Shown: piece after piece, positions 59,201-61,155 of the stretch
Layout of the letters: each line of letters begins with the position of its first letter
How positions within the stretch are numbered: the first letter of the stretch is position 1
Assembly: GCA_951406725.2 (NCBI GenBank)
Contig: OX597831.1
Location: forward strand, 41,664,001 to 41,728,000
Length of the DNA: 64,000 nucleotides
Origin: Octopus vulgaris
Lineage: Eukaryota
Direction: 5' to 3'
Translations under genes and position numbers: made by a program
Notes under the pieces: generated by a model
Told to the model about the DNA's origin: nothing
The model's database searches: none
What the model saw: the letters and a program-made list of their open reading frames with translations, nothing else

Positions 59201-61155
59201 TGAAAATCTCTTGACAAGGTCGGCATATAATCTTGCTGAGGTGCATGATAAACCGTTGAGGCCTTATATAAATCCTTGAGGCACCCTATGTGAAAACAGT
59301 AGATTAGTAAATCTATACCTTGACAGCAATTTTATTAAATGAAAATATCTTGACAAGGTCGGCATATAATCTTGCTGAGGTGCATGATAAACCGTTGAGG
59401 CCTTATATAAATCCTTGAGGCACCCTATGTGAAAACAGTAGATTAGTAAATCTATACCTTGACAGCAATTTTATTAAATGAAAATATCTTGACAAGGTTG
59501 GCATATAATCTTGCTGAGGTGCATGATCAACCGTTGAGGCCTTATATAAATCCTTGAGGCACCCTATGTGAAAAACAGTAGATTAATAAATCTATACCTT
59601 GACAACAATTTTATTAAATGAAAATCTCTTGATAAGGTTGGCATATAATCTTGCTGAGGTGCATGATCAACCGTTGAGGCCTTATATAAATCCTTGAGAC
59701 ACCCTATGTGAAAAACAGTAGATTAGTAAATCTATACCTTGACAACAATTTTATTAAATGAAAATCTCTTGACAAGGTTGGCATATAATCTTGCTGAGGT
59801 GCATGATCAACCGTTGAGGCCTTATATAAATCCTTGAGGCACCCTATGTGAAAAAACAGTAGATTAGTAAATCTATACCTTGACAACAATTTTATTAAAT
59901 GAAAATCTCTTGACAATGCTGGCATATAATTTTGCTGGGGTGCATGATCAACCGTTGAGGCCTTATATAAATCCTTGAGGCACCCTATGTGAAAACAGTA
60001 GATTAGTAAATCTATACCTTGACAACAATTTTATTAAATGAAAATCTCTTGACAAGGTTGGCATATAATCTTGCTGAGGTGCATGATCAACCGTTGAGGC
60101 CTTATATAAATTCTTGAGGCACACTATGTGAAAACAGTAGATTAGTAAATCTATACCTTGACAACAATTTTATTAAATGAAAATCTCTTGACAAGATTGG
60201 CATATAATCTTGCTGAGGTGCATGATCAACCGTTGAGGCCTTATATAAATCCTTGAGGCACCCTATGTGAAAACAGTAGATTAGTAAATCTATACCTTGA
60301 CAGCAATTTTATTAAATGAAAATATCTTGACATGGTTGGCATATAATCTTGCTGAGGTGCATGATCAACCGTTGAGGCCTTATATAAATCCTTGAGGCAC
60401 CCTATGTGAAAACAGTAGATTAGTAAATCTATACCTTGACAACAATTTTATTAAATGAAAATCTCTTGACAAGGTTGGCATATAATCTTGCTGAGGTGCA
60501 TGATCAACCGTTGAGGCCTTATATAAATTCTTGAGGCACCCTATGTGAAAACAGTAGATTAGTAAATCTATACCTTGACAACAATTTTATTAAATGAAAA
60601 TCTCTTGACAAGGTTGGCATATAATCTTGCTGAGGTGCATGATCAACCGTTGAGGCCTTATATAAATCCTTGAGGCACCCTATGTGAAAACAGTAGATTA
60701 GTAAATCTATACCTTGACAACAATTTTATTAAATGAAAATCTCTTGACAAGATTGGCATATAATCTTGCTGAGGTGCATGATCAACCGTTGATGCCTTAT
60801 ATAAATCCTTGAGGCACCCTATGTGAAAACAGTAGATTAGTAAATCTATACCTTGACAACAATCTTATTAAATGAAAATCTCTTGACAAGGTTGGCATAT
60901 AATCTTGCTGAGGTGCATGATCAACCGTTGAGGCCTTATATAAATCCTTGAGACACCCTATGTGAAAAACAGTAGATTAGTAAATCTATACCCTGACAAC
61001 AATCTTATTAAATGAAAATCTCTTGACAAGGTTGGCATATAATCTTGCTGAGGTGCATGATCAACCGTTGAGGCCTTATATAAATCCTTGAGACACCCTA
61101 TGTGAAAAACAAAGAAGATTAGTAAGTCAATACCTTGACAACAATTTTATTAAAT
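59201..61155. repeat. Tandem array of 14 copies of a 139-141 bp unit
   Basis: Unit starts (tgaaaat(c/a)tcttgaca) at 59201, 59340, 59479, 59619, 59759, 59900, 60039, 60178, 60317, 60456, 60595, 60734, 60873, 61013. Copies differ by only a few substitutions. Confidence 0.97.

Follow-up and report, generated by a model that had tools for sequence, protein, structure and literature searches.

We analysed a window of 64,000 nucleotides from Octopus vulgaris contig OX597831.1 (positions 41,664,001 to 41,728,000, forward strand), in which a tandem array of a 139-bp unit lies at 59201..61155, upstream of gene C, a member of a family of small predicted secreted peptides. At least eight paralogs of this family (A–H) lie within ~90 kb, and the part of the cluster inside the window spans 29500-62955; features are on the forward strand unless stated otherwise. 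The likely TATA box of gene C is at 61532..61539, a function assigned from its position, and a TATA word stands at the matching position before a short first exon in all eight paralogs examined. It is followed by a predicted non-coding exon 1 (61560..61583, with an approximate start and a GT donor directly after it), by exon 2 (61974..62063), which holds the ATG at 61976, a signal peptide predicted by eye, an acidic spacer and a KR site, and by exon 3 (62841..62955) with a CxxxC-x11-CxxxC motif. The last exon, exon 4, falls just beyond the end of the window (G000:C18:41729847 on). Gene C is intact, with GT-AG at all splice sites and a product of 76 amino acids that has the KR at 26-27 and cysteines at 46, 50, 62, and 66.

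Splitting the array at the unit start gives 14 head-to-tail units of 139–143 bp each, which begin at 59201, 59340, 59479, 59619, 59759, 59900, 60039, 60178, 60317, 60456, 60595, 60734, 60873, and 61013. Tandem Repeats Finder (TRF) reports the same array at 59199-61155 with a period of 139, 14.0 copies and 97% matches, in agreement with the 14-fold amplification described by the first-pass annotation, and with high identity between head-to-tail units of more than ~10 bp it has the structure of a minisatellite. No two of the 14 units are identical, and the mean is 5.6 differing columns per pair. Units 1–13 differ from each other by 4.0 substitutions per pair, compared with 6.8 between unit 14 and the others. 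The differences rise from 4.3 columns between neighbours to 8.7–12 at 11–13 units apart, the first and last units differing in 12, and sequence variants are common to non-adjacent units. According to unit comparison and BLASTN, the last unit (61013..61155) is both the most divergent and the nearest to paralog B, and it retains the B-like tatgtgaaaaacaaag. The array is located 0.4-2.3 kb upstream of the likely TATA box of C, and the distance from its 3′ end to the TATA word at 61532 is 377 bp. The B-like last unit, the distance of ~380 bp to the TATA box and the TATA-type word in each unit, all noted in the first pass, were found again.

The first ~110 bp of the unit are homologous to a single-copy stretch upstream of B (47324..47439, or −314 to −199 from the TATA word of B at 47638), with 72–75% identity by BLASTN (last unit best, E 1e-15) and 86/110 in a global alignment. 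The last unit also aligned with the upstream DNA of B, D, E, F, and H with scores above all 100 shuffles, that is, in five of the seven other paralogs, while shuffle-tested alignment detected no homologue in the 3-kb upstream regions of A and G. The homologues lie at −0.2 (B), −0.7 (F), −1.3 (D), −1.3 (E), and −2.0 kb (H) from the respective TATA words, and the unit homologue has no fixed position among the paralogs. The proposed homology to a single-copy stretch of B therefore stands for the unit head, but it is shared with D, E, F, and H, and the unit tail crosses a junction between two blocks.

These blocks are seen when the DNA around the array is compared with B. As had been claimed, the flanks align: C 59041-59307 matches B 47153-47439 in 191/256 positions (score 158, shuffle maximum 45), and C 61342-61680 matches B 47459-47786 in 250/326 (score 313, shuffle maximum 57). 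The 5′ flank (59041..59200) is single copy by alignment and genome search, forms block 1, and is homologous to B 47153-47323 and to DNA upstream of H; the proximal upstream block common to the family (61342..61531) is 79% identical to B 47459-47637. On the 3′ side of the array, block 2 (61135..61339) aligns with B 47029..47233 (130/200, score 94, shuffle maximum 44), being 74–76% identical to the upstream DNA of D, E, and H compared to 65% for B. B is not collinear with C across the array: in B the counterpart of block 2 precedes the unit homologue, whereas in C block 2 follows the array. The upstream region of C consists of two blocks of the ancestral upstream DNA of the family in swapped order. 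Each unit ends with the first ~21 bp of block 2, which shows that it straddles the junction left by an older rearrangement. The unit ends share a short imperfect A/T-rich match, ATTAAT versus ATTAAAT.

Searched with one unit, the 2.8-Gb genome gave at least 15 matches, which are the 14 units and B, and the 5′ flank of the array matched only itself (1 match); match counts from the genome searches are lower bounds. Together with a TRF scan of 404 kb around the gene family, this places the array at paralog C only, as a locus-specific and not a dispersed repeat, and upholds the earlier view that it is specific to C and grew from gene-upstream DNA. Minisatellites are common in these 404 kb, where 30 TRF rows merged by place give 18 loci with a period of at least 30 and at least three copies. 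Of these loci, the array of C is the sole listed one in the 3 kb that precede the TATA word of each paralog, A–H.

Several other repeats were observed in the window. A second uniform minisatellite at 226-744 (58 bp × 9, 96% matches) is derived from the end of an interspersed repeat with many copies in the window, and two long near-perfect inverted repeats were noticed by eye at about 33410-33620 and 56440-56520. Upstream of C and A are decayed DNA-transposon relics that are mutually alike (about 54600-55820, 58090-59013, and 28025-28215), which we take from their ends to be mariner-type; the relic with its end at 59013 abuts block 1. The relic 5.7 kb upstream contains, on the reverse strand at 55344..55377, a 34-bp exact inverted copy of 61080-61113, a segment that only unit 14 of the array contains. 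At the corresponding place a second relic (about 58280-58320) reads differently, and break repair with a short templated insertion likely gave rise to the 34-bp copy.

Eight of 24 public sequencing runs were aligned to 61013-61676 (one unit and the 3′ flank), with reads kept as contigs. The head-to-tail joint, at which the sequence goes back 142 bases, was present in all seven DNA or unlabelled runs (6 samples, 6 studies, 4 organism labels), the shorter side of the joint being covered by 31 letters or more in six of them and by 28 in X9; run X1 may be the assembly's own sample. The distinct end of the last unit running into the flank appeared as a separate contig in 7/7 runs. With X17, guessed to be an RNA run, nothing aligned over the same interval, which is no proof of absence. 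Word shares of 3-6% in the RNA-labelled runs may stem from microsatellites and were left out of account. A 26-bp deletion at 61345 is carried by X3, X4, and X9, and is lacking in the window, X1, X2, X5, and X8; as the array is found with both flank types, it likely predates their split. In run X8, before 61019, a 5′-flank contig joins the unit ~22 bases short of the junction in the window, as a loose end, and the left edge of the array may be polymorphic.

The ratio of unit to flank contig depth was 5.9 in X1, 7.7 in X2, 5.3 in X5, 12.7 in X3, 18.8 in X4, 3.6 in X8, and 1.2 in X9, where contig depth does not equal copy number and the flank contigs may represent one haplotype, which affects the ratios. 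X2 and X5 come from one sample and differ 1.5-fold as replicates. The spread among the runs is larger than this replicate difference, giving a weak hint that copy number varies between animals. The ratios of the four runs labelled as organism A (1.2-7.7) are all below 14.

Taken together, these data make it likely that the array is a minisatellite confined to this locus, that it arose by local duplication of ordinary upstream DNA where an older rearrangement had left a junction, and that it is near-neutral for C. The swapped blocks would go back to an old event between paralogs, either a duplication or an unequal cross-over, with later deletions. Slippage or template switching at the short A/T-rich match could then have given the first tandem copy; the match at the unit ends is compatible with such an event, although too short for proof. 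Unequal exchange with a protected edge is established behaviour of tandem arrays, and unequal crossing-over or conversion that spared the edge would have left uniform units and a B-like last unit. Finally, copy number may have come to differ between animals. As a minisatellite the array is ordinary. A fairly young age, as claimed in the first pass, is supported by 4.0 substitutions per pair among units 1–13 against 22% divergence from B, but within a limit: the joint and the distinct last unit are found under all four organism labels and together with either class of flank haplotype.

A comparison with B gave no indication of constraint above the background. Identity is 78% ± 8 (86/110) for the unit head, close to the values for intron 2 (77% ± 4, 283/367), the proximal upstream block (79% ± 6), and the 5′ flank (73% ± 7). 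As expected of a tandem enhancer, the array lies near a promoter, 377 bp from a word whose TATA function is itself assigned by position; above-neutral constraint was not found, in a comparison of low power (78% ± 8 against 77% ± 4 for the intron). In addition, none of 16 alignments of the unit to eight core promoters beat shuffles at P 0.05 (P 0.08–0.83), so that the unit was rejected as an old core-promoter copy. The suggestion that the unit is cis-regulatory DNA was not supported by these two comparisons, and the proposed tuning of C likewise found no support. In a genome-wide fungal test, according to the available text of that study (PMC3516485), 4.3% of the tested promoter-repeat/expression relationships were significant.

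Several observations weigh against a near-neutral minisatellite of this origin. Paralog identity is a blunt, low-power test, which could miss the conservation of a few short binding sites, and the unit homologue is still detectable in five of the seven other paralogs. Among the 18 minisatellite loci, the array has the longest period and the greatest uniformity, and it persists under four organism labels. The exact microhomology at the unit ends is just 3 bp (5 with a slip) in DNA of 66% A+T, which is weak, and the fungal figure of 4.3% comes from another kingdom.

These points bear on the possibility that the array is a tunable regulatory element, in which the units carry binding sites of the ancestral upstream module and copy number sets the expression of C. 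We regard this as doubtful: the distance of 377 bp to the TATA word, the homologues upstream of five of the seven other paralogs, a GAGGTGCAT-like word that recurs by eye in B, C, D, E, and H, and precedents at Penicillium digitatum Cyp51A, Aspergillus fumigatus Cyp51A, and the human reduced folate carrier would fit it, but conservation is not in excess, the position of the homologue is variable, and A and G gave none in their 3-kb upstream regions. It is similarly unlikely that the array serves as a heritable volume knob, several-fold variable among animals or lineages, for one secreted four-cysteine peptide gene that would be a venom or defence candidate.

Another possibility is that every unit acts as a cryptic TATA promoter, so that transcription would begin at alternative starts, or upstream, and interfere with or extend the C transcript. 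A TATATAAA-type word that fits TATAWAWR occurs in 14/14 units, and in the last unit alone a GTAAGT word follows the TATA word by ~50 bp (by eye). However, the TATA-type word of the 14 units is one inherited event, and outside the array TATAWAWR is found 41 times in 60,173 bp, or once per 1,467 bp, which amounts to a 9% chance per 139 bp. The unit homologue of B also has a fitting TATA-type word, whereas D, E, and H lack that segment. With no likeness to any of the eight core promoters and no Rfam match at E ≤ 1 over 58900-61700, cryptic promoters are very improbable. Least plausible of all is an assembly artefact in the array or at least in the number 14, a caveat of the first pass, since all 14 units are mutually different, the joint is present in 7/7 DNA runs, and both array edges are unique, while the ratios below 14 in the organism A-labelled runs, compared over 61013-61676, are to be read in the light of a circular consensus contig that under-counts variant units and of a depth that is not a copy number.

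The product of C is identical at 64/75 positions to UniRef entry A0A0L8GVS8 of Octopus bimaculoides. An exhaustive HMMER search gave 12 hits, and among the best 10, nine are named and one is unnamed; all nine names are ‘uncharacterized’ or ‘hypothetical’, from O. bimaculoides, O. vulgaris, or Argonauta hians, and the two weakest hits are long proteins matched over short stretches. Like C, the proteins A0A0L8GVS8, A0A0L8GWF1, A0A0L8FGZ6, A0AA36F718, and Argonauta hians GAB1605707.1 have a hydrophobic N-terminus, an acidic spacer, KR, and a four-cysteine helical C-terminal part, and none of these related octopod proteins has a functional name. Pfam returned no family for four exon-translation queries, and the papers listed by a literature search included none on this locus or family. 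Judged by these searches, the family of C is one of octopod-restricted, small four-cysteine peptides predicted to be secreted. In the genome search, exon 3 had at least 13 matches, 11 on this contig and two on another; three further family members lie ~300 kb on, and one of the two exon matches on the other contig has an internal stop.

AlphaFold models of A0A0L8GVS8 are helical with low to moderate confidence, with predicted local distance difference test (pLDDT) values of 68 and 73.5 and predicted template modelling (pTM) scores of 0.48 and 0.44, and Foldseek with the first model (pLDDT 68) gave no match at E ≤ 0.001. A likeness to eclosion hormone was considered and rejected, as the best ESM Atlas feature hits (0.77-0.79) were below lead level and the structure rows were under the bar. 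The CxxxC...CxxxC spacing may be reminiscent of plant alpha-hairpinins. The leader, acidic spacer, dibasic site, and four cysteines suggest that the C product is a processed secreted peptide, and a venom or antimicrobial role of the family is a guess. According to the available text of Koch et al. (bioRxiv 10.64898/2026.02.02.703354), 27 cephalopod salivary-gland superfamilies are of unknown function, and their File S1 may be relevant to the family of C. Between B and C, the mature-peptide exon (50812-50921 versus 62841-62956) is 67% identical (73/109), below intron 2 (77%, 283/367), which may hint at diversifying selection on this exon. B lacks the KR site and has MR in its place. In intron 1 of gene A, ~80 bp at about 30210-30290 presumably resemble the reverse complement of the 18S rRNA 3′ end. 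The peptide family may merit more attention than the array.

The locus offers a clean natural test, with one paralog multi-copy, five siblings single, a legible birth junction and a seemingly variable copy number. If C expression tracks copy number, the array would rank as a rare example, worked out in a cephalopod, of regulation tuned by repeats; no such case appeared among the papers listed in a narrow literature search. It would then also help to show what this unnamed peptide family does. Failing that, the array is of use as a polymorphic marker and as a small illustration of how a minisatellite is born.

Promoter repeats with an effect on expression are well known. For Cyp51A, the available text of PMC4990540 describes a tandem enhancer of 126 bp in P. 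digitatum (citing Hamamoto et al. 2000) and a 34-bp duplication that changes expression in A. fumigatus. The P. digitatum repeat resembles the array of C in unit length and in being tandem upstream of one gene, but it is a reported enhancer tied to a selected phenotype, whereas for the array of C both enhancer activity and selection are hypothetical, and a sequence relation between the two is not expected. The human reduced folate carrier promoter has a 61-bp repeat, as stated in the available part of PMC3899988. Compared with eukaryote promoter-region minisatellites and variable number tandem repeats, as far as the accessible parts of PMC3899988 and PMC3516485 describe them, the array shares a locus-specific position, long near-identical head-to-tail units, a distance of less than 2.5 kb from the likely start, and possibly length variation. 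It differs from them in occurring in an octopus, in having a unit at the long end (139 bp), and in a single-copy ancestral state that is still legible in five paralogs.
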